Assembly (NCBI GenBank): GCA_965112155.1
Contig: OZ218102.1
Source: Podarcis liolepis
Lineage: Eukaryota
Length of the DNA stretch: 64,000 bases
Direction: 5' to 3' (one strand)
A program made the translations under genes and the position numbers. Shown piece after piece: positions 1 through 62,639 of this stretch; the first letter of the stretch is position 1; the number at the start of each line of letters is the position of its first letter. Below the pieces are notes generated by a model. The model saw only the letters and a program-made list of their open reading frames with translations, did not search any database and had not been told where the DNA came from.

Positions 1-1366
1 TGCACCTTTACTACTTCTGTGATACCTTTTGGAGATACTCACTTGCCAGTATGGTTTAACAGCTGCATAATGTCACTGGGTTGAGATGGTTAGACTATTG
101 GAAAGAGTTGCGTATGGATAACATCAAACTACATTTTTTCTTTATTTTGGATCCAGCAGCAGATGTCCTCATCCTGCATAAATACCTACTGACTATTTTG
201 GATAAGAATTAATCAACAGGGATTTAATGGAGACAGGGGGAAATTCCTGTTGAATGTAATCACACTCTTAAAGAACCTGGTTTGCTGCTTGGCAATATCT
301 TTTGAATCCAGGTTTCTTCTTGGAAAGGCCAGGTGGCAACCATGGCCAGGAGTGCTATCTACTGGTTGCATATGGAAAGTAGGAACTTTGTAACTGTTTC
401 CTGTATTAGTGATTTTACAGACAGCTGTGCTTGATGTGGGATTTCTTTTAAAGAGGTCTATTTCAGATGTAAAGTTCCCAGTTTCTTAAATAGGGGTAAG
501 AGTATTAAACTGAATTTCATTGTCTGCTGATGACTGGGTTCTCAGGCAGTCATTTTTTCATAAAATCTTGACTCTGGAGTTTTAAGTTCAACTTTGACAG
601 AAAATGGATAGGTTACCTACATGCCTAACTGGGCGTGTGATTTGACCTCAGTGTTGATCAGTTTCCTTAGCTACTTTGCATGTACTCTCCCTAAATATAG
701 TTTATGAGTAGTGTGGTAGAGATTTTGATGGAATGGGACTTTTAGATGGGTGGGAGGAGAAAAATGAAGTAGTTTTTTTGGAGGGCATGAAAAAGTGGTA
801 AAATTTTCAAGACTGGGGCGCAGAACTTAGTAGTAAAAGCAGCAGTAGCAACATAATCCCCCCACATATTTTCCTTGAACCAATTTTCCCCTGCCCCTTC
901 ACATAATGTAGAGTTGCAATCAGCAGCCAGGCAGGTTGCCATTCCTCCACCCCCCCCCCATGGCCTTGGTTGGAACAACCCTGTGTTTGATCAGTTTGGA
1001 GTGAAATTTTTGAGTACTTTTCCTTATATGGTAAATTTTATTAAATAATGAAAAGATGGTTCTGCCTTTCTTGTTTTGTATTTAATATTGTGACTTTGTA
1101 GTTGCATTCATCATTTAAGATGAATTAAGATCCTGAATATTTTTACTCAGATGTAGCTGCCACTGAGTTTAGTGGAAACTGCTCCTTAATAAATGTGCAG
1201 CCCTAAATGTTAAGCAGTGAGAGATGGCTGACAAATTCTGACATATATTCCAAATTGTATCAGATCAAATTGTATCACTGTCTTTACAGTGAGCAGTTTT
1301 TTTAAAGTCAGCATAAAAAAGAAGAGGTGTTTATATTTTTACATTTGTGTTAAATATTTTTCATAG

Positions 1367-1499
1367 GAACACTTAGTCAGTCTGGATGAGCCAGCTTTGG
1401 AAGTTGGGCACCAAGCTCTGCTTAGACAAGAGCAAGCGAAAATCATTCGGTTCGAGAGGCAAGCGGAAGAATTTATCCATGCAGTCTTTTATCGAAAAG
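1367..1499 (+). CDS. LCOR: LCOR upstream exon (133 nt); open in frame with the downstream CDS, encodes [44 protein letters not shown]; often treated as 5' UTR in mammals
   Basis: Acceptor tttttcatag|G at 1366/1367 and donor AAAG|gttggt at 1499/1500. No stop in the frame that joins exon 2906 and Met 2956. [18 protein letters not shown] resembles the LCORL segment [18 protein letters not shown] (recalled). Confidence 0.8.
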
Positions 1500-2905
1500 G
1501 TTGGTCATGATGAAAGAATGAAATCAATACTCTTAACTGGCTTGCATGCTTGGCTAACTGATCTTTTTAAAATACTTTTTTTGAGATAGCCATGTATTAT
1601 TTCCATAGAATCTCAAGGTTTTTTATCTGTACAAATAATCTATAAAAGGACACTGGCTGACACCTTTAAATATATATTGCACCCGACATGCTTCCCAAGC
1701 ACTTCCCAGAGGCCCAACAATTACCTGGTTTTCAGGCATTTTTGAAGAGCTGCATACAGGGAAGAACAAGACTTTTGAACTATCTCCTGAGTGCTCTGAC
1801 TCCTGTGGCCCAGTGTTGATGTATCAATCCGCCGGTGTTATTGTGATGTTAAATGATTGACATTTGGGCAATCCTACCCACCTGTTAGAAGTTGGCTCAC
1901 AGAGTTGAGGGAAGATAAAGTTCTGTCCCACTGGGCCCGAAAGGCTCACCACCCTCTGGGTAGTTTGTGCTCTAAATTTTGTCTCCATGCAGCGGTGCTA
2001 TGTGATTTTTTTTCTAGAAAAAGAGGTGCAATGAACACTTCTCTTTTTCTCTTATAATGGCAGTCACACCCACCTGGAACTGAGTTCTGGTGCGTTCTAG
2101 CTGAAAAAAGGCCCTGGTAGTGCCCAGCTGTACTGGTGGGAAGAGAAGAATTTTGGGGAGTTACTAATAATAGCATTTACACAACAGAGTTTGTGTTCAA
2201 AGTACCGCACATATATTATCTCAGAACCAGTAAATAGGCAAATATTATATCCATGTGGTTGTGGGGAAGGTAAGAGGAATTGTGGATTTAAGATGGTGTG
2301 TCTAATTCTACCTAGAGACTTTTGACTAAGATGAGATTCACATTGATAATTTATTAGTTCGTTCTCTTTAGCTCAGCTTATTTTGGTTGGCAGATTATTG
2401 TAGACCTAGAATTCTATCTGGGGACATACATAGGGTCTCTGTCTTATGTTGGCAAAGGGCTGTTATACTGGAGGTGATTCTTTAAACCTCTGTACAAAGA
2501 AATACATGCTTAATTTGCCTCGCTCTTCCCATTTCAGCATTGAAGAAATTATTTCATTCTTGTGAATGTATTATATCATTTTTAAATTCTCTGTGTTAAA
2601 AAATGGGCATTGTGATCTTAAGGAGCTGGTGCAGACATAGTGGCTCTTTTAAATGCAGTTAAGAGAGGGAGCTGTAGGGAATGGGTGCACAATTCTGTAA
2701 GTTGCTTCAGATTTTGAAGATGCAATTAAGAGAGCCCCTGATGTAAGATCTGTGCCTTTTTATTGTCTTGCACTTGCACGTTAAAATATTGTAGCTTTTT
2801 TAATTAAAAAAAAACCACAACCCTCAGTATCGGAAGTTGTCTTGCTTTAAAGTTGTTCTACATAAAACTTCCTTCTTATTTATTTTATTTTATTTTACCA
2901 TTTAG

Positions 2906-3193
2906 ACAGTCATAGGGTCTCTGACCCCAACATTCCCCTAGTGGCCCGTGAGATCATGCAGCGGATGATTCGACAGTTTGCTGCTGAATATACCTCAAAA
3001 ACTAGCTCTACTCAGGACTCCAGCTCGCCCAATAGCACAAAGAACCAAAGCCTGCTGAAAGCATCTCTGGTAGCCTCATCCCCTGTGGGTGCAACGGCTC
3101 AAAATCCTGTGCTCAGCAAACTTCTCATGGCTGACCAGGACTCGCCCTTGGACCTCACTGTCAGAAAGTCTCAGTTGGATCCTAGCGAACAAG
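2906..3193 (+). CDS. LCOR: LCOR shared exon with conventional start ATG at 2956 ([12 protein letters not shown]...), LXXLL nuclear-receptor box (LSKLL) and CtBP motif PLDLT
   Basis: T-rich tract ending tttag| at 2905 and donor CAAG|gtatgc at 3193/3194. Translation matches the LCoR N-terminus (NPVLSKLLMADQDSPLDLTVRK). Confidence 0.96.
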
Positions 3194-3707
3194 GTATGCC
3201 ACATTTCTGTTCATAGCCCCTTGCAACCATTTGCAATTTGCTGGCCATTAATGACTAAGTAAATCATAGAACGGAAAGAAGAGAGGCATGGATTGATTAG
3301 TAGTGCATAAGGGAATGGAGAAAAGCTGTGCTGAAAATGGTGCGAAAGTGCTAACAGCTATGTGCCCTCATTTTATTAAGCATATTCCAGATGGATGCTG
3401 GGTCTGCCAGAAAAGAAACTTACTCTCTGGGAAATTTACTTATGCTGAATTAATGGGTTTGATAGTGTACTTCCAGCCTCCATGTAGTGAATTGTGCCTG
3501 TAATCACACTTGGCAAGTATTTTGGCAATTTGCTCATAAGCAGAATGCCTGTAATTGGAGCTGAATACTCAGATTGTCTTACAGCAGCCACTTAGTAAAG
3601 GCTGTTTTATTTACTTAAAATATAGTCCTTCATGTCAATTGTAACTTTCTTTGTGTGTTTAGTTCTTTGTGTGTGACATCTTTTAAGTATGTGGTATCCT
3701 ACACATT

Positions 3708-4059
3708 GGGACGCGGGTGGCGCTATGGGTTAAACCACAGAGCCTAGGACTTGCCGATCAGAAAGTCGGCAGTTCGAATCCCCGCGACGGGGTGAGCTCC
3801 CGTTGCTCGGTCCCTGCTCCTGCCAACCTAGCAGTTCAAAAGCACGTCAAAGTGCAAGTAGATAATAGGTACTGCTCCGACGGGAAGGTAAACGGCATTT
3901 CCGTGCACTGCTCTGGTTCGCCAGAAGCGGCTTAGTCATGCTGGCCACATGACCCGTAAGCTGTACGCCGGCTCCCTTGGCCAATAAAGCGAGATGAGCA
4001 CCGCAACCCCAGAGTTGGTCACGACTGGGCCTAATGGTCAGGGGTCCCTTTACCTTTAC
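3708..4059 (+). mobile_element. Sauria SINE, full length (lacertid/POM-like), with 9-bp TSD cctacacat
   Basis: tRNA-like head with A box (ggtggcgctatgg) and B box (agttcgaatcc), and (accttt)n tail. TSD at 3698-3706 and 4060-4068. Highly similar to the copy at 52563. Confidence 0.93.
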
Positions 4060-4459
4060 CCTACACATAAGAGTGTGTCTTCTGGTGAAGGGCTTTAAAC
4101 AAGATCCACAGATTTTGACTGACCTTGGTAGCCAGGAACCAGTTGTGGTTATCACTGACCCCGTTCTCCACCTGTTCTTCTGGCATGCAAAGGAGATTTG
4201 GTGCAGGGTCAGGACCTTGTGGCTTGTGTCATTCTGAGCCCCAGAAGCATTAGCACTTCTCACTGGTTCCAGGTGATTCTGAAGTCTAGGGCAAAGTCAA
4301 ACAATAGACTTCACCTTTCCCCCAAGTTTCAGCCTTAGTTAAATTACTGCAACTGCCTCACCAGACTTTGGAAATACTGATGCTCCGTCCAGTGTCAGGT
4401 GAAATCAATGCTTTTTGGGTGTTCTAGAAGAAAGATGGAATTTTGTTCCTGACCTTCTG

Positions 4460-7645: not shown

Positions 7646-7739
7646 ACGGAGTACTTGATCTGTCCACTAAGAAAAGTCCATGTGCAGGCAGCGCCTCCTT
7701 GAGCCATTCACCTGGCTGCTCCGCTACTCCTGGGAATGG
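7646..7739 (+). CDS. LCOR: LCOR shared exon (94 nt), DGVLDLSTKKSPCAGSASLSHSPGCSATPGNG, second CtBP motif VLDLS; branch point for the alternative last exons
   Basis: Acceptor tctctgcag| at 7645 and donor AATGG|gtaagg at 7739/7740. Phase 1 in and phase 2 out, which fits both downstream terminal exons. Confidence 0.95.
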
Positions 7740-10755: not shown

Positions 10756-11725
10756 GCGACCTGGGAGACCCAGCCAGCACCATGCAGAGGGACTTCGGAG
10801 TGGTGATGGGGTGCCCCCGAGAAGTTGGCAGGATGGAACGAGGGAAGGGTCTGGCCACTCCACATCTCTCAAAGTTCCATTGGCTCGATCACTGCAGATA
10901 AGCGAAGAACTGCTGAGCAGAAACCAGCATGCTACAGCTGCCAGCCATGGGCCGTCTGGGCTGCAGAATCACGGACAGCACATGATACTATCCAGGGAGG
11001 CTTCTTGGGCAAAACCACACTACGAATTCAACTTCACCCGAATGAAATTCAGGGGAAACGGTGCACTCAGCAACATCAGTGACCTTCCTTTTCTTACAGA
11101 AAATTCAGCCTTTCAAAAAATGGCACTTCAAACTAAACAGGATGGGAAAAAGGACATGAGCCATTCAACTCCTGTGGATTTAAAGATACCACAAGTTCGA
11201 GGCATGGACCTTTCATGGGAGTCACGTTCTGGCGACCAGTATAGCTATAGCTCTTTGGTGATGGGTTCACAAACGGAGAGCGCGCTTAGTAAAAAGTTAA
11301 GGGCTATCCTTCCGAAACAAAACAGAAGGAGCTTGCTGGATCCCGGACCAGACTCCTGGGGCTCAGATGCTGAGCAATCTACCTCTGGACAGCCATATCC
11401 CACCTCTGATCAAGAGGGAGATCCTGGCTCTAAGCAACCTCGGAAGAAAAGAGGCAGATACAGACAGTACAACAGTGAGATATTGGAAGAAGCGATCTCT
11501 GTGGTGATGAGTGGGAAAATGAGCGTCTCCAAAGCTCAGAGTATTTATGGGATTCCCCATAGCACCCTGGAATATAAAGTGAAAGAGAGGCTGGGCACTT
11601 TGAAAAACCCTCCAAAGAAAAAAATGAAATTAATGCGGCCGGAGGGACAGGATGTCTCTGTAAAGCTTGAGATAGATCCCCAGGGAGAGGCAGCACAGAG
11701 TGCGAATGAGTCAAAGGATGATTAG
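10756..11725 (+). CDS. LCOR: LCOR proximal last exon (CDS part): LCoR isoform with C-terminal pipsqueak-type helix-turn-helix and basic NLS; spliced CDS 238+94+970 nt = 433 aa
   Basis: Acceptor ccaattag|G at 10755/10756. ORF 10715-11725 contains KQPRKKRGRYRQYNSEILEEAISVVMSGKMSVSKAQSIYGIPHSTLEYKVKER. Stop TAG at 11723-11725. Confidence 0.97.
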
Positions 11726-33647: not shown

Positions 33648-36600
33648 TGAGGACGCTGCAGATTGTCTTGGCCAGCCGAAATCTCCATTGGAAAAATTTA
33701 TGGTCAGACTGTGCACGTACCATCAGAAGCACTTCGTCCGTGTCCTAAACGACATTTGCACTGAAGTACAGACAGGCTGTGAGGGACAGCAGTTACCTGG
33801 AGCAGAAAACATGGATGTGTCCACTTGTAGCTCTGGCTGCAGCCAGTATCGCACTGAGAACCAGGAGCTTGGAACTTCTTGCTCTGAATCAAAGCTCCCT
33901 TCTACCCTGGACACAGAGCAATCAGGGTCTCATGGCTCTCTGCGCAAACTTTGCCATGCCCTGAAGCAGGCTGTGGATCTGAAATCTACAGATAGAAGGG
34001 AAAACTGCAGCCCAGTTGTCCGAAGAGACTTCCCTGAGCTTCCTAGCGTTAGAACAAGTTCTGCAAGTCCCAGGGACAGTCCCTCTCAAGGATACCTCAC
34101 TGCCTCCAATTCCCATCACTCTGCTAAAAGTCTGGAAGGCCAAGCCCTTGGTAGTGACCAAGAGATGGGGGGTAGGAAAGGTGAGGATGACAAAGACCAG
34201 GTGCAAAATAGAGCTTTGCTGGGAGGCTACAATGCTGTGAAAGCAACAAACATACACATGAGTGAAGACGGTCTGGTGGGCTCCCAGAAGAACACTTTTA
34301 AAGCTTTCCCAGAGGAAACACGAGAGCCAGGCTTCACCACCAACTCCCCTAGGAGAGCAGACAAAGAGAATGCCTTGCAGTGCAGCTCCAAAGCCTCTTT
34401 GCACCCGGATACTGAAATGAATGACCAAGAAGCAAGACTGAAGGCAGAGAACCACCTCCAGGCTTCAGGGAAAAGCAAGGGGAGCTATAACATGCAACCT
34501 GTTGACAAGACCCATGTGGAGAATGCCAAGGACGGCTGGCTATCCAATAGCCCTGTGCCAGTGGTTCACCACAAAACCACCAATGGACACTCCAGGACCA
34601 AGAGTAACTCATCCTCCACCAAAAGCACACGTAAGAGCAAAAGGCCTTCAGGGTTGAGAATTAATGACTATGACAACCAATGCGATGTTGTTTATATCAG
34701 CCAGCCCATTACAGAGTGCCACTTTGAGAGCAAGAGGGTGGTCTCCTCTAGGAAGACGGCAAGGAAGAGCACTCGTGGATACTACTACAATGGTGAGTGC
34801 TGTGAGATTCCCACAGTTCGCACCTTGGCCAAGACTTCCCATGTACAGGAGAGTGGGAACACACTGGCGCCAAGGCCTGAGGTGCTGACAAGCCCTAGCC
34901 AGGGAGCTTCTCTTCCGAGTGATAGCTGCTTAGCAGCAGCCCAGGCCATGAGTGGCGATGGTGACAAAAGACCTGCTGTGGCCGTCCCTCAAGGAGATGC
35001 CTCCAACAACAGTACTCAGGAGAGAGATGAGATGCGTCCGGCTGAGAAGGCCACTCCTGAGGTAAGTTTTGTGAAGGAGAGAGAAGACAGTTCTGCTGAA
35101 GCATCCACAATTGCTCTCTCCCCGCCACCCGGCCTTGTTTTGCGTGTAGAGAAAGGCAGCCTGTCCAATTCTTCACTGCAGACCACTCTTGTCTCTCCCT
35201 GCCAACTGAGCAAAGGGGAGCCACAGGACGAAATGGACATGGACACTGTGCAGAAGGCTGGCAATGGCACAGACTCTTGTAAGAGTAGCAGACCCAATGA
35301 AGACAGTGGCAAAACAGGAGAATCTGTGGTGTTGTCTGCTTCAGAGGTTGCCAGTGGTGAGGAAAGTGCCATGTTCTCAGAGACCGAGGCTACCCCTGAG
35401 CCTTCCATTCTTCCAGACCAGGTGCCTCTTGACAGCATGGCCCTTCAGCCCCCTGAAGACCTTTCCCCCGGAATGGACTTGATGCCTCCACTGGAGGAGC
35501 CTGCCCCTGTTGAACACTTGCCACCATTTGTAGAACTACCTTCCGATGTGGAACCTCCACTTCTTTCCCCTATAGACCTGGCAGAACCTCCTGCCCTTGT
35601 CCGTCTGGAGCCTTCCATAGCCCTCCCTGGAGAACTCCCTCCTATCCCAGAGCGTATGTGTCCAGGGGAGCCTGTTGCCAGTTCAAGGGCAGTGTCTCCT
35701 GGCATGGTGGTGTCTGAGCCTCCTGCCCATATTGACCTAGAGGCTCCTTCAGGGGCTCCTTCTATAGAATCTCCAGTGGTGGGACCTGGCAAGTTAGATG
35801 TGGAGCTCTCACAGCCACTTTCTGACTTGGATGCTGCAGAGCTCCCTGGCAGCTTGCAGGGTGCAGATGCACATGAAAGTATTAATACTCAAAATAGCAT
35901 TGAAGGGATTCTGGACTCAGGTGGAATCCACTCTGGGGAAAGTGAGACTGTGTTGCCTGTTGCAGATAATGATGAAGATTGGGGAGAGGGAACAGTAAAA
36001 GATACAAGTGAAACAAGCAAGGTGGATGATGGAAAGGAACTTGATAGCGAAGCTCCAGCTGTGCCCCAAACATCAGAAGTGGACAACAAGGAGGGAGCCT
36101 TTTCCAAAACAAGCCCGGACAAAAAACGAAAGCGGGAGAAAAAACCTCAGGTTGTATCCGATCGCTGTCTTCGAAGCCAGCAATCCCTGTCATCTGCAGA
36201 GGATAGTCCTGAGCAATCAACTTCTTCCATGTCTCTACAGCTTCCTCAAGTTCAGATCAAGCTTTCTAAGAGCCCTGCTAAGCGTTTCAAGAGGGAGGTG
36301 CAACTTGACGGTGCAGCATCGCTGTGTTTCCCAAATGACGGGTTCCATGAAACACTGCTAAACAACATTGGGAATTCTTCTGAGCAGCAGCCAGGTGACA
36401 GAAATGACATCACAATGGGACAGGCCTCTCAGACACTGTTAGCGAAAAAGACCATAGTAGAGGAAGACCAGAATGGAGAAGGAAACAAGGACAAGGCAGG
36501 GGCAATGCTTGAAATTTGCTTAGAGGGTGATTCTGCTAGGAGAAGTGTTCGTGTCTCAGCAGAGACCTTTGACAGGGGTGAAAAGCAGTCAGATTTGACA

Positions 36601-38337
36601 TCAGGCACTCCAGATAACTTTGACAGTATAATGGAGGTTACAGAGGAGTTGCACACCCAGCATGGGCCCAGTTCTGTTAGCAGGAGTGAAAGCAAGCTTG
36701 TACCACCAGAGAGATCGGTAAAATCTAAGAAGCCAGCTCTCCAGTTCTACAACCTGAGGCACACCCCTGCCCCAACCCCTGTGGCCACTGCCTCCAAAAA
36801 CACTTCTGGAAAAGAAACCGTACAAGGAGATTCTAATGCTGTGACTATGCCAGCAGGCTCTAATGTCACAGACCAAGAAAATGCACAGAGTGAAGACACC
36901 GTTGGCTTCAGTAGCATGGAAGTGCTCTCTGACAACAAGCCCAGTTTTGTGGAATGGTGTGCTGAGGAAGAGAACCAAGAACTCATCACTAACTTTAACA
37001 CTCAGTACATGAAGGTCCAGAAAGGGTGGATTCAGCTGGAGAAAGAGGCTCAGCCAGCTCCAAAGGTCAAGAATAAATCCGACAAACTGAAAGAGATCTG
37101 GAAAAGCAAGAAGAGGACCCGCAAATTAAAAGGGCCCACGGAAGGCCAGAAGCTCTCCCCGGTTCAGATGCTGTTCATGAAGGGGTTTGACATGTCCAAC
37201 ATCTGCAAGTGGTTTATGGAGACCACTGAGACCAAGTCTCTGGTCATTGTGAAGAAGATGAACACCCGTCTCCCAGGGGACATCCCCCTCATCAAGCTTC
37301 CACTCCAGAAGGGCTGTTATTCCGCCAGCTACCCTAGCTCCCTTCAAGCTGAGCGCCTGAAGAAACACTTGAAGAAGTTTGCTGCTATGACCCCGGCCAA
37401 AAACACCATCAAGATTCAGAGGCTGTGGGCTAAGCTTCGAGAGGGCTCTGAGGACAAAGAGCCTGAGCAGGCTGCCAGTTCGAAGCAGACGCCTCCCTCC
37501 GAAGTAAGCGTGGAGCACAAAGCCGAAGCCAAGAGCGCCCAGCCTCCCAGCACGCCTGTGCAAACCAGCTCTCGCATCCTGAGGAAGTACTCCAACTTGC
37601 GAGGCAAACTCAACACCATACGCAAGGTGGCCAAGCAGGACAAGAACGACAGCGTGACCAAGCACCCCTCTGCTGAAAGCAAGCCGAGCGGCAAGAGCCT
37701 GTGCATTAAGCCCCTGGTGTCTCCGAAACTGGCCCAGCAGGTCCAAGCACCCCCACTTGCGACTAAGACAAGCCTGGTTGAAAGAGGAGGGAAGGGGCGA
37801 AAGGCAAAAGGCAAGGTACAGGAGGACACCTCATCCAAAGGCCACCTTCAGCAAACCAAGAAGAAGTCACCGACCGAGAGCAGCAGGTCACAGAGGCTGT
37901 TGAGCACCTCGAGCAAAGAAAGGCTTCCTCTTAAGAAAGCCAGTAAACCGAAGCCTGCAGGGCCTCCTGCTACCAGGAAGCAGGCGGCTGCCGACAAGAG
38001 TCATAAGCCTGTGTCTGGGAACGAGAAGGCAAAGAAGCTGAATGACTTGCGACCTGGGAAAAGGAAGCCCCCCGTCCAGAAGGGGAAAGCCAAGGCCGGT
38101 CAAAAGGCAAGTCTGCCTTCCAGGCAAGAAGGGCTTGCTAAGCCTCCCAAGCAGAAAGTGGTGCAAGACTCCAGCAGCCGGCCTCCCAAAGTGGCTGCCC
38201 AAAAGGCAAGCAGTGGCAAAGCCTTGACTAGGTCAATGAAGCGAATTCAGGAGAGCAGCACAGCCCAGGGCAAGAGGAAGCTGAGGGCAAGCAAAGACTC
38301 TTCACCCAGCAAACGCAGGTGTCTGGATGCAAAGTAA
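33648..38337 (+). CDS. LCOR: LCOR distal giant last exon (C10orf12 exon) encoding the PALI1 isoform (PRC2-associated LCOR isoform 1); spliced CDS 238+94+4690 nt = 1673 aa from Met 2956
   Basis: Polypyrimidine tract ending tctctctag|T at 33647/33648, in phase with donor 7739. The 1577-aa ORF has C10orf12 motifs: KSPLEKFMVRLC, GLRINDYDNQCDVVYISQPITEC, RKTARKSTRGY, the PIP domain (EWCAEEENQEL...KGWIQLEKE...CKWFMETTETKSLVIVKK...LQAERLKKHLKKF), and the C-terminus SKRRCLDAK. Confidence 0.96.
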
Positions 38338-51797: not shown

Positions 51798-52036
51798 CTA
51801 CATGCACTGGGAACAGCCGCATTTGCTGGGTTTTTCCACCTCCTCCACAAAGGAAGAGCCATCGCTGCACTCAAAGGTGTATTTCCTGCGCTTGAGGCGC
51901 AGTCCTGCACAGCATCCTGGCCCTGGGCAAGATCCCCGGCACTCCACCCAGGAGACAGGCCGGGTTGTCTGGCAAATGGCATAGCCTCGCTGGACCTGGT
52001 GGAAGTCTCGCACGGCCTCACCCCGACACTCCGACT
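51798..52036 (-). CDS. SLIT1: SLIT1 last coding exon (239 nt CDS), C-terminal cystine knot: [37 protein letters not shown]...[31 protein letters not shown]
   Basis: ttttccctag| acceptor; stop TAG at 51800-51798. The 12 exons total 2023 nt in one open frame. Confidence 0.97.
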
Positions 52037-52562
52037 CTAGGGAAAACATCAGGAAGAGGGAAGTCAGGCAAGGAGGCTCCTCTGATAAAGCCTTCATTAC
52101 ACATTATGCTTGGGGTTCTGGTGAAGGTCAGCTCAAAAAGCTGGGCATTCTAGTATGTATAAGCATACTATGACGAATGATCTTGCCTTTTGAATGGTTA
52201 GCAACAGGTAGAAAAAATCTTATCTGTCCCTTATCTTGTTGGCTGGGGGTCCTGCAAAACTGGTCTTGCTTTTTGTCAATGGAAGGGGAGGACAGAGAGG
52301 CAGAACGGGGTGGGGGTGGGGAATCAAGAATTTGTGGCTCAGTTGCTCATGCTCCCTTACCAAAGTTGTGGCCATAGTGTCTGGAAGAAGAGTGCAATGG
52401 TACTGTACTGGGATGTACAACACTGGCTGTTCTGTGGAACCACGGAATTCCAAATTCCCATTTATAGCCGGTGCAACAGAAGGGATGGGGGTCTACAGTT
52501 GCTAGAAAACTTACTAGGGGAAGAGGCTAGGCAAGAAATAGCATCTAAGTACGCCCTGGCTG

Positions 52563-52911
52563 CGATGCGGGTGGTGCTGTGGGTTAAACCACAGAGCCTA
52601 GGACTTGCCGATCAGAAGGTCAGCAGTTCGAATTCCTGCGACGGGGTGAGCTCCCATTGCTCAGTCCCTGCTCCTGCCAACCTAGCAGTTCGAAAGCACG
52701 TCAAAGTGCAAGTAGATAAATAGGTACCGCTCTGGCGGGAAGGTAAATGGCGTTTCCGTGCACTGCTCTGGTTCGCCAGAAGCGGCTTAGTCATGCTGGT
52801 CACATGACCTGGAACCTGTACACTGGCTCCCTCGGCCAATAAAGCGAGATGAGTGCCGCAACCCCAGAGTCGGTCACGACTGGACCTAATGGTCAGGGGT
52901 CCCTTTACCTT
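52563..52911 (+). mobile_element. Sauria SINE, full length, in the last SLIT1 intron, with 13-bp TSD tacgccctggctg
   Basis: Same family as 3708-4059. Perfect TSD at 52550-52562 and 52912-52924. Confidence 0.94.
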
Positions 52912-53075
52912 TACGCCCTGGCTGGGGTTTCCTCTGCCCACGGTGGGCATACCTGGCTTAACACAATACTGGCAGCTTAGGTAGAGGCCCAAGCGTCTTA
53001 TCAGGCGAGGGCCCTCAGGGGTCCTTAGCTATGGAGCACGTGGGAATGTAAGGAAGAAAGGGAGCTGTGCCTGAC

Positions 53076-53287
53076 CTTGGTCACAGAGGTCACCATCAAA
53101 TCCCCCGTTGCATTCACAGAAGGCCTCGCCTGTGTCTGAGATCTGGCACTGACCATGAACACACTGCAAGCTCTTGCATGGGTTGTGGAGTTCCCCTTGC
53201 TGGTTGCACAAGGCTCCCTTGTAGCCATCCTGACACTGGCAACTATAGGAAAGGGCATCAAGGGGCATGCAGATTCCATGGATGCAC
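53076..53287 (-). CDS. SLIT1: SLIT1 exon (212 nt), EGF-like 8-9: [29 protein letters not shown]...[14 protein letters not shown]
   Basis: ctacag| acceptor and |gtcagg donor. Confidence 0.96.
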
Positions 53288-53746
53288 CTGTAGAATGAGT
53301 GAAACATAAAGCTAAATATAGGTGAATTCAAAAGGTTGCAGTTAGGCCACCATCTACTAGAAGCATCATTTAACATAGGAAGGACCTGCAAGATTCTCTG
53401 TGCACCTTGGCTTCTCCAACGTCATCTTAGGAATACAAAGAAGTGAGAGGGGAGGAGCGTTCTCACTGACTCCCCAACTTCCCTTATCCTCCAAATATAC
53501 AAATACAACTTTATTGATGCTCCTTTAAAGGTGAAGGAGGAGTTGGTATATGGTATGTGCTGTTGTTCTTGAACGCTGTTCCCAAACCTATGCCCCTGTG
53601 CTGGGCTTTAGAGGCAACTAATTTCTGCTTTTGTTGCTACAATCATAAATGCCCTGCCTGCCCCGCCTCATCAGAGATGAGTAAACAGGAGAGGCAAAAT
53701 ACTGCCCATCAGAGCCCACAAGATATGGATGCAATTCCAGTCACAC

Positions 53747-53948
53747 TTAGGAACACAGGTCAGACTATGGGTGCATCTAGCCCAAAATTGTCTGCTCTGA
53801 CAGGCAGTGGCTCTGTAGGGTCTCAGGCAGAGGTCGTTCCTGATCCTTTCAAAGTGGAAATGCTAGGGATTACTGTATGTGTGAAATGCTAGGGATTCTG
53901 TGTGCTTCTGTGTGAAAAGCACATGCTCCACCACTGAGCTGCAATCCC
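53747..53948 (-). mobile_element. Degenerate tRNA-derived squamate SINE (Squam3-like)
   Basis: The reverse complement begins gggattgcagctcagtggtggagcatgtgctttt (A-box region) and ends ctagatgcacccatagtctgacc...gttcct; internal duplication of gaaatgctagggatt. Confidence 0.6.
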
Positions 53949-54042
53949 TCCCCACACGTTCTCCATCTTGCACACAGCACTGCAGTGAGAGAAGCAGCCC
54001 ACAAGGAAAGGGTGGAGGGGGATTCTGCTGCTGTGTACTCAC

Positions 54043-54331
54043 TTGTGGCCCTGGCAGGGGTTGCTAACGGGCTGGTCACAATGGGGCCCGACCCAGCCTG
54101 GATCACAGTGGCAAATGGGGCCATGAGGGGTGTTGGGTTGGCAAATGCCATGCAGGCAGTAGAGCTTGCGGCAAGGCTCACAGCCGGGCACCACCCCCGG
54201 CTTCATCTGCGTCTTAGTGAAGTCCTGCAGCTCGTTGTTGATGTAGAGGTTGCGGATGCAGCCATGGAAGCTGGAGCCATTCAGGATCTGCCAGAGGCGG
54301 AAGGCGGCAGAGTTCACATCCACGGGCATCC
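54043..54331 (-). CDS. SLIT1: SLIT1 exon (289 nt), end of laminin-G and EGF-like 7: [64 protein letters not shown]...NPCQGHK
   Basis: ccgcag| acceptor and |gtgagt donor. Confidence 0.97.
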
Positions 54332-54756
54332 CTGCGGAGGGGAGAGCCAGAACAGCAAGGTAAGGGGCAGGAAGAGGAGGGAAGAGCAAGGTCCTGGGGG
54401 AAAGAGAGATGGTGCTGGTGGAAGGAAAAGAGCATTCCTTATTCTGGAATGCTGTGTGGAATGTTAAGAGCCACCTTCTTCCATTTCTCTCCCCTCTCCC
54501 ACAGCGCCCGTCACTCCTCCTCAGTTTGGCACTTGGCTCTTAGTGCCCTGCAGTATCAGCTCAGACACCCCACCCTGGAGAGGAGAACAGAAACGTTCCT
54601 CTTGCATCATTACTATCCAATGGACGTGAGCTAAGAAGAGTGAAGGAGCTCTCCATTCAGTTAGTGCCCTCCAGGTGCAAGCATGTAGGTGGCAGAGATA
54701 CCAGCCTCTCTCACCCCCTTCTCCCCAACTGGAATGGGCCCAAGTCACAGTCCTAC

Positions 54757-54911
54757 CCCCAACATAGAGTGGAGCCTCAGAGTTCAGCGTGTGGGCCTTG
54801 CCAAAGCCGTCCATGGTCATGGGGTCTCCTCCATCGATGGAGAGGTTTACCATCCGCTCAAAGGTCACCAGCTCTACAGTGTGGAACTGCCCGTCATTGA
54901 TGGTCTCTGCA
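54757..54911 (-). CDS. SLIT1: SLIT1 exon (155 nt), laminin-G: [51 protein letters not shown]
   Basis: ccctag| acceptor and |gtagga donor. Confidence 0.96.
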
Positions 54912-55181
54912 CTAGGGAGAGAAGGGAGGTGTGGGATGGGAAAGGCTGATGGCACCCAACCTTTGGCCTGATATCTGGCATCCACAGCCATCTGCACCCA
55001 TCCAGCATGGAAGTGCAGCACCCGCATCCGCTTTGCCTCGTGTTCCCTGTCACTTCTGCACTAACTCCCCATGATCCAGACCCCCAAACCCTTCCTTTTG
55101 CCTTCATGGTCAATGTGCAGCTTTGCTCAATGACTGAGGGTCACTCTGAGCTGGAAGGAGAAGCCAAAGGCAGAGGGCTAC

Positions 55182-55312
55182 CTGTAAATGGCAGAGCTGG
55201 GGTAGGTGCCTGGATCATAGCTGACGCGCACATGGCCTTGGTACAGCTCCACCGCCATGTGGTCAGTGTCTCCATTATATAAGAGGATCCCATTGTCTTC
55301 AGCCGTGGAGAC
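55182..55312 (-). CDS. SLIT1: SLIT1 exon (131 nt), laminin-G: [44 protein letters not shown]
   Basis: ctgcag| acceptor and |gtagcc donor. Confidence 0.95.
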
Positions 55313-55459
55313 CTGCAGAGAACGAGGGAATGAACAAGCAAGGGGCAGAAGCATTAATTCTACAATCCAACCAGTCCCACAAATGGCACGGATGAAGAGT
55401 GTGGGCAGATGCCCGCTCTTGGGGTGGCGGAGGAGGCAGCCTTGCTAATCAACACTTAC

Positions 55460-55697
55460 CTGCAAAGTGATGTTGGCGCTGGGCCAGTTTTGCAGGTCAG
55501 TGAACTGGAGGTACGTGTCCCTGTCCACAAAGTTGACACTCAGCAGCTTCTCGCATTTGGGCCCCCCAAAGCCAGGAAGGCACTGGCATAAGGCACGACT
55601 GCCTAGCTCCACACAGTTGGCACCATTCTGGCATTCTGCCCTCTCGCATGGGCTGGGTTGGAGGGAGCCATGGGGTGGAATCTCACAGAGCTGGCCA
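55460..55697 (-). CDS. SLIT1: SLIT1 exon (238 nt), EGF-like 6 and start of laminin-G: [28 protein letters not shown]...[32 protein letters not shown]
   Basis: tcatag| acceptor and |gtaagt donor; [22 protein letters not shown] is characteristic of SLIT1. Confidence 0.96.
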
Positions 55698-56130
55698 CTA
55701 TGATAAGAGTGAGAACACAACAAGGCACAAATTGCAGGATGCAACTTGGAGACAACAGCACAGGGTCTTAGCAGGACCACAGCTGGACCCTGTGGCACTC
55801 ATACAGTTTTAAGGCAGTGTGCCCTCTCCTCTGATTTTCCTCTTCCCAGAGGGTGAGTAAAATGTGCCTGGAATCACATGCATGTGTGTTGAGCCATGAT
55901 CTTTCCTGGTCCCTGTTTGTGCCTGCAGTAAAAGCACTCCAGTTCACTGCACTGGGGCATCAAGTGAATGGGCAAGGCAAGTACTCAAGTGACATACAAG
56001 TCATCACACCGCCCTGAATCCTAAGAGAAGACTGACACACTTTACTCAGTTTGCTTCTTCTGCTTCTTCATCAATAAAGACAACCAGAATATCTTTGGCC
56101 AGGGGTGTCGTTATGGGGTGGTCCAGGAGA

Positions 56131-56520
56131 CAGGGCCAGCCCAATACATTTTAGCATCTGAGGTGAACCACAAAATGGTGTGCTCCCCCCGCAACCAGGG
56201 AAGAAAGGGTGAGTGAAGATCTACATCAGGAACATAGAGTCAACCTTACTGGACGGCTGAAGTGGGAATCAAAGGCCTTGGGGGGGGGCTCACTCTGAAT
56301 CATGCCCAGAGGGCAGCCCCCACCCCCACCATTTTCTCCCTAGTCACTGTAGAGGTGGCATGGGGGGGGGCTGTTGAGGAGGTGGCAGATCTGCCCTCCA
56401 AGGAGTACACCACAGCTGTTGCTGCCACCATAGCATCCCTTTGAGGCTGAATCCACTGCCCTGTGGATCCTGCCACCTGAGGCATTTGCCTCACTTTGTC
56501 TCATGGGCAAGCTGGCCCTG
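56131..56520. mobile_element. Degenerate DNA-transposon element with short TIRs
   Basis: CAGGGCCAGC...GCTGGCCCTG terminal inverted repeats; no clear TSD. Confidence 0.45.
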
Positions 56521-56839
56521 CCACCCTCTTAATTTGCCCAGAGGCATTCTACATTTATGCAGGTTTATGTCAAGGGCATGTGCCCCAAGTCTTTTAAGCT
56601 GACCTCAGCTGCAGGACACAGCTATGTTGCATATCTCTGTACATTACTTCCCTGTATGCAGGAACTACTTTTGCCAGGATGTTCAGAACAACTTGTCTCA
56701 ACTCCTTGGTGGGCAGAGCAATTCACACTAGGCATGTAACTCCTTGTGTGGTACAAAGTCCCAGCAAATGTGAGATGCATTCTTTTAATCTCATAAGCAC
56801 AGTCAAACAACTCTGGAAACAGCCAGGCTCTTAAAACTA

Positions 56840-57337
56840 CCGTATTTTTTGCCCTATAGGGCGCACCGGCCCATAGGGTGCACTTATTTTGGGGGGGGGA
56901 ATAAAGGGGGGGGAATTATTCCCCCCCCGAGCCCCAAAGAGCAAAGAAGCTATGACAGCGAGCGGGATGGATCCCACTAGCTGTCCTGGCTTTATTTTTA
57001 GCCTCGGGGCTGGGGGTCCGGGAGCAAAGGCGAGGTTGCGCAACCTCGCCATCGCTCCTGGAGCTTGCCGGGCTGGGGGTGGGGGAAGCCCGAGCTTCCC
57101 CCAACCCCAGCCCCCAGAACGGGTCCGGGAGTGACGGCGAGGTTGTCATCCTTGCCATCACTCCCGGAGCTTGCGGATAGTTTCCTGAAGCCTGGAGAGT
57201 GAGAGGGGTCAGTGCGCACCGACCCCTCTCACGCTCCAGGCTTCAGCGAAAGCCTGCATTCGCCCCATAGGACGCACACACATTTCCTCTTCATTTTTGG
57301 AGGGGGAAAAGTGCATCCTATAGGGCGAAAAATACGG
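56840..57337. mobile_element. Young Tc1/mariner-superfamily MITE (498 bp), TA TSD, in a SLIT1 intron
   Basis: TA|CCGTATTTTTTGCCCTATAGGGCGCAC...GTGCATCCTATAGGGCGAAAAATACGG|TA; GC/CpG-rich interior with internal inverted repeats. Confidence 0.9.
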
Positions 57338-57510
57338 TAATCACTGTTTGACACTTCTGGTAACAACTGATCACTCTTTTTGTTGTACCTCTTTCTCCCA
57401 GCCACCCTTGTGGAACTCTTCCAGTAGAGGGCAATCCTAGGTGTTGAGGTTTGCAGGTAGCTTAGAATGAGTTGAACTGGTATATACTCCTGCCCATCTC
57501 ACAACCTTAC

Positions 57511-57648
57511 CTGTAGCCTCCAGTACAAAGGCAGGAATATCCATTTGGCTCATCAAAGCACTTGGCGTTGTTCTGGCAGCGATGGTCTAGGCAGTCGTCA
57601 TAGTCTACACTGCAATTATCTCCCACAAAGCCGGGCATGCATTCACAC
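57511..57648 (-). CDS. SLIT1: SLIT1 exon (138 nt), EGF-like 5: [46 protein letters not shown]
   Basis: cctacag| acceptor and |gtaagg donor. Confidence 0.95.
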
Positions 57649-57793
57649 CTGTAGGCAGGGACAGGAAGAAGCCACACACTGGATGTAGCGGCATCCCTTT
57701 CCTATCCACTTTAGAAGTCTGTTGCAATTCCCCTGGTTTTAAACATCTTCTGCTTCCCCCCATGCCACCAATGGTAGCTGCTAAATCACTCAC

Positions 57794-57887
57794 TTGGGCC
57801 CATCAGGGGTAACCCTGCACACGGCATCATGCTGGCAGGGGCTAAGCTCCAGGGAGCAGACATCCATTAGCTGCTCACAGTAAGTCC
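57794..57887 (-). CDS. SLIT1: SLIT1 exon (94 nt), EGF-like 4: GTYCEQLMDVCSLELSPCQHDAVCRVTPDGPK
   Basis: cctgcag| acceptor and |gtgagt donor; phases consistent. Confidence 0.94.
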
Positions 57888-58062
57888 CTGCAGGAAGGAG
57901 AGAAAAGTAGAGAGAAGCAGGCTCAGGCCTCATGTCCCCCAGGCCCAGTCTGCATTTGGCTGAACCAGCTCTCCCAAGGAAAGGGCAGGGAAGGGAATGA
58001 GGAAGAACAACCTTTGCTGTCCCATCACTTGCATCCGTGCAACAGAACCAACAACTTATGGG

Positions 58063-58267
58063 AGGGTTTCCATATCTGGACCCACAAAGTTATTGAGCTT
58101 TTCTTAGTTTGCCCAAGTTGTTGAGCTTTTTGGGCAGATTCACATGACGTTTTTAAGTTAGTTTTTAAGAAAATCAGCAAAAACGTCCAGATTTTCCCAG
58201 ACATCTTAGAAGGATGTACTACAATATTCCGGATATGTCCAGAAAATTCCAGACGTATGGCAACCCT
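58063..58267. mobile_element. Short MITE with AGGGTTGCCATA-type TIRs
   Basis: agggtttccatatctgga...tccagacgtatggcaaccct. Confidence 0.6.
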
Positions 58268-58799
58268 ATCTCATGGGCAGCCCACTCGAAGCACTGTGAG
58301 ATAAGGTATGGCAACCTTCCATTCATACAATAGATGCCAAACTACTTTGAGGGGTGGTTTTTCTTTTAACAATAAATTTTATGAAATAATTTAAAATAAA
58401 ATATTTATAGTCTCATGCTTCAGCCCAGAATGCTGTTATTTGTATCTAACTCCCAAACCCATGACTCAATATTCAACCAGGGTATAGGTGGATCTCCTTC
58501 TGTTGTTCAGGGAAAGACACTATTGTTCACAGGCTAGATACTAACCTGGCAGGGAAGGGGAAACTACTACTTGGGAAGCTAGAGTTAGTTTAAAAAAAAT
58601 GCATTGGGTTATCTTCAGGTATTGGTGGAGGAGAGGTGCTACCACTAAACTAAAAAAAGTAAATGTTGGGCACTGGAGTCAGATCCTTAGGATAAACCTG
58701 CCTCTGGCACTGACCAGCTTAGAAGTTTGTGCTTTGCTACCTTAGCTCTCTTCTGCTTCTCTTCAAGTGCATCCGCTTCCATTACAAGCCTGGCCCTAC

Positions 58800-58939
58800 C
58801 TGTGAACAACGGAAGGCATAAGCATGTGTAATTGCTGGATCCATTAATGCATGTGGCACCGTTCTTGCAATTGTTATTGTTGCAGTTGTTGGTCCTTAGA
58901 CTGCAGGTTGGACCTTCAAATCCATCCACGCAGGAACAC
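58800..58939 (-). CDS. SLIT1: SLIT1 exon (140 nt), EGF-like 2/3: CSCVDGFEGPTCSLRTNNCNNNNCKNGATCINGSSNYTCLCLPLFT
   Basis: gacag| acceptor and |gtaggg donor; EGF cysteine spacing. Confidence 0.94.
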
Positions 58940-61495
58940 CTGTCAAAAGGGAAATGAGGGTTGTTTAACAAACGGAGAGGTTAGAAGCTGCTCACTTTGG
59001 GGCATTTCAGGGGTTTTGTGGGTGGTTTTTCTTTATCATTCTCGAAAAGAGCTCAAAGAAGAGTGAAAGGAAGTCAGGGCTTTGCCAGAAGAACATTCAA
59101 TGCTCCACCAATGGTTCTGAATATTGCACTGGCTTGAACCTGAGGCACTTTCATCTCTGGTTGGTAGGATGTAGATGGATCCACTTTGGAGGCCACTCGG
59201 CATAGAAGGGGTTAAAGAGATTATTGTTTCCAGGAGAGTTCTGGGGCAGACACCATTGGAGCATAGCTGTCAATGTTTCCCTTTTCTAAAGGGAAATTCC
59301 ATTATTCCGAATAGGATTCCTTGCAAGAAAAGGGAAAAGTTGACAGCTATGACTTGGAGGGGCTTTAAGTTGAGTAGTGGAACAGGCAGGGGAAGGGAGG
59401 GGTTAAAGAAGAAGAAGAAAAGAGGACCCTTGGGATGGGCAAGAAAAAGACACAGATGTGAGAAGTCAGAGGATATGACACTCAACATTAAATGTGCCTA
59501 AATGTTTAAGTATTGTCACTTAACTCAGCAGTGGTTTCGGGTGTGTTTACTGTATTTTTCTCTGGTTGTTGAATTTTTTTATATAAACCACCCTGAAATC
59601 CATTTTCATGAAGGGCAGTATACAACTATCTTAAATAAAAACGTAAACCAGCAAACAGGCAAATAAAATCAATTTTCAAAGCTATACCTATGGCTGCATT
59701 TGCATGCCCAAGCTAGATCAGTGTGTGTGCTGTATCTACAGTTCTGTGTACATAATGCATGTGGTGCTGTGCATGCATGCATGTGCCTGGTTGTGTACTG
59801 CGTGGGTCTGAACTTGAGATTCATTTACGTGCACCATGTCACATCTGTGCACACATCAGGAAAGGGACGCATTGCATTCACATATATTTGCGTGTTGGGA
59901 GGGGGGTCTGTTGTACTAAAAGCACAGGTGAGTGTGTGCTGCATATGCTGTCATTTCCATTTATACTGCCTGTAGCCTATTTAGCTGGAAGAGGAAGCAG
60001 AGGTGGAAGAACTGATGACCTTTCGTCTCTGGCATATTGAATGGCTCTGCAGGCTGAGGGTCTTGATATCCTTTCCTAGAGGGCTCATCTCCCTGCCTAC
60101 TACCTTTCCCCAAAGGCAGAATCTAGTCTGGCATGTGCAGGCAAACAGCTTTGTCAACCCCCAAAGGACATTATGTGCTGGCTTTGAAGATGCTGGGTTG
60201 TTATGGTGACGGGATGAGAGGCCATTTAGCATCTTGGCAATTTGGGTACACAGAAAGGGCTAGGGCCCCATTCTCTCTCTACTGCCTGTGGTTTATTTTC
60301 AGCCACTAATTATGGTCTGTTTCCCAGAAAGCCACCCACACTGTACTCTGGAGAGTGAAGTGGGGAGGAGCCCCGTGCATTGAGGTCCAACTGCAAACCA
60401 GAGCTACAGCTCCCCAAGAGGCTGTATACGTCTTAAAAGATTCCCCCTGCCGGGTCCCAACCCATTTTTACAGAAAGAAACTGACTACGGCTTCCAGGAT
60501 TAGTGATTGTGGTGGTGGACAATCTTGGTGGAGGGTAAAGAGTGCCTTTTTGCACAGTATCAACAGAATGCTTCCCAAATCTTTCCCCCAAATCTGTTAC
60601 AAAGCACCCCTAAAAACATCCAGCTTTTGTTATGATGGCCTGCACCTCAGAAGGACGTTGGTTTTAGTCTGGAGAGGCCTCAAGAGAGTCTCCATTACAG
60701 AAAGCCAAGCTCACATGTTCCAAGCAAGCTGAGCTGCAAAAGCCCCTGGCAAATTCATTGTCTCCTTTCACTGTAAATCTCTGCCATTCCTCCCTTATAA
60801 TTTGTAAATTTAGAAGTAAACGAAAGAGCACCATAAACAAGGATATGGCCACCAAAATATCACTCTCACGATTACTAATCAAGAAGTTTTTATCGCCTGA
60901 GGCTCTTGTCTGCAGAGTCCAAAAGACACGTTAATCTCTTTTCTCCAACTCACATAAACAGCAGATTAAGATGCATTTGTAAGAAGCCATTTTGCAAACA
61001 TCTTAGACACCATTTTAATTTCTTTACACTCATTCACTGCCAGGAAGACAGGTTTTGCCTTCTTTGCTTTTATGCTAATTTTTAAGCCCAAGGTAAGCAT
61101 AAAAGGTGATGCTTTTTGCCTTACCAATTAGGAATCCTTTGGATATCAAAGAGACCTCATCTCTCTCTGCCCAGTAACATCCCTGTGGACTCCCACTTCT
61201 CCTCCTCGCCCCTTTTTTTACTGCTGAAGTGGTGCTCTCATCTCCACCAGAACAAGGTATGAAACTCTCTCAAGCCCATCACCCGGCCAACCCCCACTCC
61301 CCTTCCCCCTATTTTCTCCTTTCAAGCCCCATCAGGTTCCTCTTTCTTAGGGAGACTTGCTGTCTTTATTCTCCTTGTCATGCCCCAAACTCTTCCTTTT
61401 GCTTTCTTCTAATTCTTGCCCTAAACTCTTCCCCAAAGTCGCTACCGAAATCTCTACCATTTCCCCCCCATTTGAGAACCTGAGCAGCCACTCAC

Positions 61496-61593
61496 GTGAA
61501 GCTGGCTTCACTGCCCTCGTGAGACAGGCAGGTCCCACCATTCTCACAGGGCCTGCTGGAGCAGCCATCCACAGAGAGTTCACAGTTTTGGCC
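61496..61593 (-). CDS. SLIT1: SLIT1 exon (98 nt), EGF-like 2: [33 protein letters not shown]
   Basis: ttccag| acceptor and |gtgagt donor. Confidence 0.95.
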
Positions 61594-62228
61594 CTGGAAT
61601 AAGGCAAGGAGAAGTAGCAGCCACAATACAAAGAACAAATGATAAAGCTCTGGCCAGGACGTGAGGTTTCTCAGTCTCAGGTCCTTGCTCATCAGCCATA
61701 AAAGAACAACAAAATAATAATAATAGGATTTTCTGCCTATAAATAATGCAGGCTGTCCTTTTTGGGATTGCTTGTTTTTGCCACCAGGATTTCCTTTATA
61801 GCTATTAGTCAAGAGTTGCCTTCCCAAGCAAGCGTTCTCTGTAAGTTTTGAAGTTCAGTTTCCATCATGATCAGGGACAATGGATGCTCTAGATCAAAAC
61901 ATCTGGCGAACATTCAGATGAAACAGCCAGTTCCACATTCTCCACTCCCACCCCCAGAAATAGTGGCAGCTCTAGGTCCAATCAGTAGGGACTGAGAGTG
62001 TATCTCGCCCATTCCTGATGGCAGTGATAAACTAGGCTGGTTGTCAAACTGGAGAATGGGTTCCTTCCACCATGTCTTGGTCCTTCTCTGAGCCTTTTTC
62101 TTTTGGTCGACACAAGCTGTCAGAGGCTATGGTCCCCAAAGCAGGGAGAAAGCCCAATCCTTCCCTTTGTCAATGATCCCTACACCCTCCCTAGTCACCC
62201 CTCTCCTCCCCTCCATCCCTCTTCTCAC

Positions 62229-62353
62229 CTTGTAGCCACTGGGGCAGATACAGCGGTAGGAGTCCAAAGGGTCTGGTTGACATGTGCCCCTATTTTGACA
62301 GGGACTGGAGAGGCAGGGGTTACACTTGGCCTGGATGATGAGGGGAGGAGGCC
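62229..62353 (-). CDS. SLIT1: SLIT1 exon (125 nt), EGF-like 1: PPPLIIQAKCNPCLSSPCQNRGTCQPDPLDSYRCICPSGYK
   Basis: tatgcag| acceptor and |gtgaga donor; in frame with neighbouring exons. Confidence 0.95.
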
Positions 62354-62639
62354 CTGCATAGATGAAAGAAACCAGACAACTAGGAATTGGGGTCAGAGCC
62401 AAAGAATCACTGAACGGGAGGGAGGGAGGATTTCCACACATCCTCCTGTGAAGACTGTCCCCCTTCTTGGCCAGAATCTTTTGCAAGGCACTTGCCAGAA
62501 ACATAGAGGAGATCGCAAACGGATTAATGGTGGAGCTGAATATATATTAACAGATGGAGGAGTTCTGAAAGGAGAGCCTGCCCACCCCACTCCATGGCAC
62601 AAAGCCAGGTTGGGCTTACTTGTTTTTCTTCTTTAAATA

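Follow-up and report, generated by a model that had tools for sequence, protein, structure and literature searches.

In the genome of the lizard Podarcis liolepis, five exons of the LCOR gene join into one open reading frame that runs from an ATG far upstream into MQRM, the start from which the proteins LCoR and PALI1 are conventionally numbered. The extension encoded in this way is a real and ancient coding region, which databases model without naming a domain and which is missing from the constructs in the accessible literature. Its exon layout, splice sites and open frame, the homologous exons and intron phases of the paralogue LCORL, and the conservation of residues 1-85 across deuterostomes were all observed. 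Judged from the sequence, translation almost certainly begins in the first of these exons (exon A), and LCOR transcripts that start there are likely to yield LCoR and PALI1 with an extra N-terminal domain, which would be helical, zinc-binding and probably protein-binding. The stretch of DNA analysed, referred to here as the window, comprises 64,000 nucleotides (G000:C5:61008001-61072000) of a 1.57-Gb genome, and positions without a contig name are counted from its first letter.

LCoR has been numbered 1-433 with the LSKLL motif at residue 53 (PMC5562849; PMC4066800, both in their accessible parts), while 'full-length' PALI1 has been defined as residues 1-1557, and spectra have been searched against Q96JN0-3 (PMC8319299, accessible part). 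A preliminary description of this DNA held that both proteins are described as starting at MQRM, and the residue numbering in the accessible text of PMC5562849 and PMC8319299 agrees. The canonical proteins, LCoR with 433 aa and PALI1 with 1557 aa (Q96JN0-3), share with the long forms the same gene, the nuclear-receptor (NR) box, the CtBP motifs and the Psq or C10orf12 last exon, but their first residue corresponds to long-form residue 143, midway along a predicted helix, and the cysteine module described below is missing from them. No published description of the extension or of a domain within it was found in the literature searched, which also covered the accessible parts of PMC11121065, PMC12223765 and PMC13670883; figures and supplements of subscription papers may show long forms. 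The accessible text of a PhyloCSF study mentions LCOR only for the merge with C10orf12 (PMC6886504). The extension has been overlooked in the accessible functional literature and is not hidden from databases.

Exons and reading frame of the extension

Two of the five exons lie within the window. Exon D (1367..1499, plus strand, 133 nt, preceded by AG and followed by GT) holds codons 82-125 of the extension. Exon E (2906..3193, plus strand, 288 nt, likewise AG/GT, phase 1 at both ends) contributes codons 126-142 in its 5' part (2906..2955, plus strand), and its remainder (2956..3193, plus strand) carries the canonical start MQRM (long-form residue 143), the NR box and the first CtBP motif. When joined, the two exons read through 61 sense codons with no stop before the ATG at 2956. 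The preliminary description had claimed just such a stop-free splice of 1367-1499 to 2906, and its coordinates, splice sites and peptide were all reproduced; it had also reported no in-frame ATG within these codons, where we counted zero in frame and two out of frame. A given frame stays open over this length in 3.5% of 20,000 shuffles, and the 61-codon frame taken alone is weak evidence for coding. It goes beyond chance because the exon D peptide matches LCOR proteins and because the frame continues upstream to an ATG. The peptide (44 codons) showed 72-98% identity to LCOR proteins (126 matches among 163 candidates), the nearest named relatives among the matches listed being lizards and an amphisbaenian (91-98% identity), and a search of the lizard's own genome with these 44 residues alone returned nothing beyond exon D itself.

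Initiation had been expected upstream, outside the window, and a search there for N-terminal exons had been proposed. We searched the 150 kb upstream with the annotated LCOR protein of a relative, and recovered three further exons in the same frame on the same contig, 10-34 kb before the window. These are exon A (G000:C5:60974178-60974274; codons 1-32), which supplies the start ATG, 33.8 kb before the window and in frame, together with cysteines C5 and C10; exon B (G000:C5:60997378-60997443; codons 33-54); and exon C (G000:C5:60997855-60997934; codons 55-81), which encodes W64, C70 and C73. Exons A-E joined give 142 stop-free codons before MQRM with AG/GT at every junction, and 139 of the 142 residues are identical to those of the annotated Elgaria LCOR (XP_062988592.1), with three differences. 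The ATG of exon A has a strong context (A at -3, G at +4), is situated within a CpG island (GC 0.76, CpG observed/expected 0.91) and marks the start of the frame, since an in-frame stop stands 24 codons upstream of it. Exons C and D together hold three out-of-frame ATGs. The mammal-type first exons seen in annotated models and a 16-residue cassette exon of Elgaria found no credible match in this genome, the matches being of low complexity or short.

Several features were noted around the first exons. What we take to be two CRE-like sites are located 55-75 bases ahead of the ATG of LCOR exon A (G000:C5:60974105-60974125), and two sites that we take to be octamer-like precede the first exon of LCORL (G000:C10:1130200-1130310). 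More CpG-rich stretches occur upstream of exon A (G000:C5:60925001-60938500 and 60971250-60971750) and may represent further promoters of LCOR or belong to an adjacent gene.

RNA data gave weak support for B and C as exons. Two raw RNA runs, of each of which about 12% was covered, yielded one and four reads against the exon B/C stretch. All five fall within the exon B and exon C bins, with first mates on the minus strand; four of the five are only partly aligned, no splice joint is listed for them, and the only variant within the exons is a synonymous change at a third codon position. As for assembled RNA contig sets over this stretch, one gave an intronic piece only and another nothing, and 14 presumed-RNA contig sets share 0.21-0.27 of the words of window positions 1200-3300.

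The gene itself is LCOR, as the MQRM exon carries the LSKLL NR box and CtBP motifs and is followed by two alternative last exons. LSKLL falls at canonical residue 53, in exon E (motif positions after the accessible part of PMC5562849). Exon F (7646..7739, plus strand, 94 nt) holds the second CtBP motif and is common to the LCoR and PALI1 forms. The LCoR-type last coding exon (10756..11725, plus strand) encodes the Psq helix-turn-helix (PF05225 at 10757-11722), and the PALI1-type last coding exon (33648..38337, plus strand) corresponds to C10orf12 with DUF4553 (PF15090 at 33655-38334). By arithmetic on the exon boundaries, the Psq form measures 433 aa from MQRM and 575 aa from exon A, and the PALI1 form 1,815 aa from exon A; these are the LCoR and PALI1 that transcripts of the exon A promoter would produce if translated from the exon A ATG. 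Elsewhere in the window, the minus strand at 52000-62600 carries exons for laminin G and EGF domains that belong to a convergent gene. This gene is likely SLIT1, which in human lies next to LCOR on its downstream side. A short interspersed repeat also occurs on the minus strand in two similar copies (3850-4296 and 52615-53028), whose translations are alike.

The LCORL paralogue and conservation among deuterostomes

The LCORL gene of the same genome has five homologous exons, with intron phases identical to those of LCOR exons A-E; exons B (66 nt) and C (80 nt) have the same lengths as in LCOR, and exon D measures 130 nt. The two N-termini share 71 of 141 aligned residues and the same four cysteines, with the lowest likeness in exon D (11 of 43 identical). 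The preliminary description had cited a stretch of LCORL, which is indeed present at the N-terminus of this gene, and the region is annotated as coding in LCORL/PALI2 (e.g. P0212). Mismatches between LCOR and LCORL number 52, 47 and 76 at the three codon positions. Over codons 1-81, dN is 0.31 and dS 1.31, a dN/dS of about 0.24 for a single paralogue pair, whereas in the shifted-frame controls dN roughly equals dS (dN 0.42 and dS 0.44 in one, dN 0.41 and dS 0.38 in the other); over codons 111-142, pN is 0.29 and pS 0.74, near saturation. The synonymous bias that had been proposed as a check is thus found in frame, for one paralogue pair and not for an alignment of species. PALI1 and PALI2 have been said, in the accessible text of PMC8864842, to share little beyond their PRC2, EED and CtBP motifs, a comparison that missed the N-terminal likeness. 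LCORL occurs twice in the assembly (G000:C10:1130342-1156860 and G000:C235:205864-235601), with 97-99% identity over the exon-flanking loci; the second copy is likely the second haplotype and possibly a recent duplication.

Conservation reaches well beyond amniotes. When residues 1-154 of the Elgaria protein were compared with 1.84 billion cluster representatives, 212 matches were obtained, and the best 150, which were listed, include named frog, teleost, shark and lamprey proteins. Residues 2-85 were matched in amphioxus, acorn worm, starfish and sea cucumber (hhalign 99.2%), and sea urchin and crinoid proteins were further recovered with a profile of four sequences (13 matches among 7,218 candidates). 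In a 69-row alignment, C5 is kept in 66 of 68 rows, C10 in 67 of 69, and C70 and C73 each in 69 of 69, while G33 and W64 are invariant; 16 of 17 invertebrate proteins have the four-cysteine pattern. Four residues separate the cysteines of the first pair (CxxxxC), which is variable in teleost LCORL. The canonical Met is less constant, as its column holds Met in 46 of the 69 rows and Leu in 13, the named killifish, molly and catfish proteins being among the latter. The next Met, three residues further on at residue 146, is retained in 59 of the 69 rows, and fish could still start there. The preliminary description had suggested that the native proteins may carry a conserved, probably helical N-terminal domain that MQRM constructs lack. 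This idea is borne out by the LCORL homology, the synonymous bias and predicted helices, with one correction: the most conserved part is encoded by the upstream exons A-C, which hold the four-cysteine module, and not by the window's exons D and E.

The invertebrate deuterostome members of the Mblk-1/E93/MBR-1 Psq family begin with this N-terminal module and continue with Psq domains, and most of these proteins have a CtBP motif between the module and Psq. LCOR shares with this family the Psq helix-turn-helix and the CtBP motif, and the family link is found in the accessible parts of PMC8864842 and PMC5343783. The Mblk-1/E93 literature, as far as the accessible text of PMC5343783 and PMC12897451 goes, names only the Psq domains, the NR box and the CtBP motif. 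Searches for the module in protostome E93 returned, among the matches listed, only deuterostome or unnamed proteins. The N-terminus of protostome and insect E93 may resemble the module as well.

Amphioxus also has long LCORL-like isoforms (about 2,000 aa), one of which (P0306) has no Psq match. Three of its proteins (P0306 1630-1651, P0335 1630-1651 and P0346 1509-1530) contain a stretch resembling the EED-binding Lys1241-Phe1242 motif of PALI1, with 65-73% identity over 20-22 residues and a pairwise E of 1.7e-4 against Elgaria PALI1; this motif received no score from a profile built on the long C-termini of vertebrates. PALI isoforms have been called vertebrate-specific (PMC8864842, PMC8319299, accessible parts), and the putative PALI1-like EED motif of amphioxus is a lead only.

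Annotated isoforms and the choice of start

The gene model of the extension is not new, since NCBI automated models from across the amniotes and two human-labelled entries already include an extension. These public models (XP_062988592.1 of Elgaria, XP_050658792.1 of macaque and the human-labelled KAI2556796.1 and KAI2556795.1) use the same exons and frame and give the region neither a domain name nor a function. Among 120 listed models of the 126 exon D matches, all of them proteins already annotated as coding, a set in which frameshifted orthologues could not appear, exon A is present in 58, exon B in 78, exon C in 93, exon D in all 120 by construction, and the pre-Met part of exon E in 105, with median exon identities of 0.77-0.95. 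The complete A-E layout, with 141-142 residues before MQRM, is found in 28 of the 120. Seventeen models splice A to D and five A to C, and the cysteine module is often incomplete in annotated isoforms. First exons fall into exon A (58 models), two mammal-type classes (22 and 15) and otherwise or mixed (25). Models starting at exon A were seen in siamang, orangutan, macaque, capuchin and marmoset, and in human in none among the 15 members listed per cluster. The human-labelled KAI2556796.1 has 593 aa (160 + 433 residues) and holds exons B-E; this record and another of 661 aa (partial) are extended through a different first exon, which lacks C5 and C10 and has its own in-frame ATG.

Exon E, with the canonical start, the NR box and the first CtBP motif, is skipped in frame in 11 of the 120 listed models, from birds and mammals, and these models are therefore without the MQRM start. 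Such skipping would yield PALI1 or LCoR without the NR box.

These observations bear on which start is used. Ancestrally, the proteins of this family are likely to have started at exon A, and MQRM is likely an internal methionine, which serves as a start only where there is no upstream in-frame ATG or by leaky scanning. The alternative first exons of mammals and the in-frame skips would give rise to proteins that retain half of the cysteine set or lack it entirely. A bolder reading, which we advance tentatively and with less than even confidence, is that the main vertebrate LCoR and PALI1, the human proteins included, start about 140-160 residues earlier than described, with an ancestral zinc-binding, partner-setting domain that is toggled by the choice of first exon and by exon skipping.

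It is also conceivable, although on the whole unlikely, that the extension is coding and ancestral and belongs to minor isoforms in mammals, above all in human, with most protein made from MQRM. The first exons of the main promoter would then lack an in-frame ATG, or their ATG would be scanned past, and the published constructs would be the main form. The several first exons in the listed models (the 22 and 15 of mammal type and the 25 mixed) speak for this, as do the 433-aa models of many mammals and the models of about 1,555 aa, which are also common, and the function reported in accessible published work with the 433- and 1557-residue forms. On the other hand, exons B-E keep their frame and 70-95% identity across amniotes, the mammal-type first exon of the human-labelled entries does contain an in-frame ATG, and scanning to MQRM would probably be hindered by the out-of-frame ATGs of exons C and D.

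Predicted fold and biological meaning

The extension very likely forms a folded domain. AlphaFold2 predicts six helices in Elgaria residues 1-154 (8-32, 34-42, 44-51, 71-87, 96-123 and 135-153) with a mean pLDDT of 76.9 and a pTM of 0.52. The long helix 96-123 lies within exon D, and helix 135-153 starts in the pre-Met part of exon E and runs through the canonical Met 143. A model of starfish residues 1-100 has a similar helix pattern (pTM 0.37), and the predicted packing of both models is uncertain. Pfam placed no family on the extension in four proteins, in an 82-aa fragment or on the starfish N-terminus; sequence searches of the PDB gave best E values of 0.13 and 1.8; and Foldseek gave no match under E 0.001. 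The best VIA-align hits (Z 5.2, rmsd 4.2, 80 aligned; Z 4.5, rmsd 6.9, 64 aligned) are ordinary for helices, and the ESM Atlas returned only LCORL-like clusters under 0.9. The fold searches on these models thus point to neither a known nor a new fold.

Residues 1-85 would fold as a zinc-clamped helical module, to which vertebrates would add two helices ending just past the canonical Met. The four conserved cysteines are present in two pairs, and we lean towards zinc binding by C5, C10, C70 and C73 because of this cysteine pattern alone; a homodimer-with-zinc model, computed without an alignment, scored 0.00 and speaks neither for nor against this. The module, placed ahead of the NR box and the CtBP motifs, may bind a partner. 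This would be its most likely role because it has no recognised catalytic or DNA-binding signature and because of that position, and we rate the chances of a partner-binding role as about even.

Another account, which we regard as doubtful, accepts the domain and denies the zinc: its helices would become folded upon contact with a partner, or with the NR box or CtBP motifs of the same chain, which would amount to auto-inhibition. It would explain helices of high pLDDT alongside a low pTM and a CxxxxC first pair that varies in teleost LCORL, and AEBP2, another PRC2 subunit, offers a parallel in its inhibiting long isoform (PMC12669776, accessible part). Against it, few residues are as well conserved between starfish and mammals as the two cysteine pairs, and the protein is nuclear. 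Disulfides are unlikely in such a protein. The remaining view, that the exons are a conserved 5' UTR whose open frame and gene models are by-products of DNA conservation, could appeal to the 61-codon frame seen in a few shuffles and to the published numbering from MQRM in its accessible sources, but it is close to refuted and highly improbable in the face of the frame-specific synonymous bias against LCORL, the identical intron phases, the protein-level homology to invertebrates and the Leu at the canonical Met in fish.

The long start, if common in cells, would matter for both proteins. LCoR is a nuclear-receptor corepressor, recently listed, according to the accessible part of the source, as an mRNA therapeutic for tumour immunity, and PALI1 is an allosteric activator of PRC2. 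'Full-length' constructs would then lack the oldest N-terminal module of the family and cut a predicted helix in half, searches of spectra based on Q96JN0-3 would miss peptides of the extension, and variants in the extension exons would be classed as UTR. The protein of LCORL/PALI2, a body-size locus, begins with the same unnamed domain. If the main vertebrate proteins do start at the earlier site, two decades of LCoR and PALI1 biochemistry used N-terminally cut proteins.
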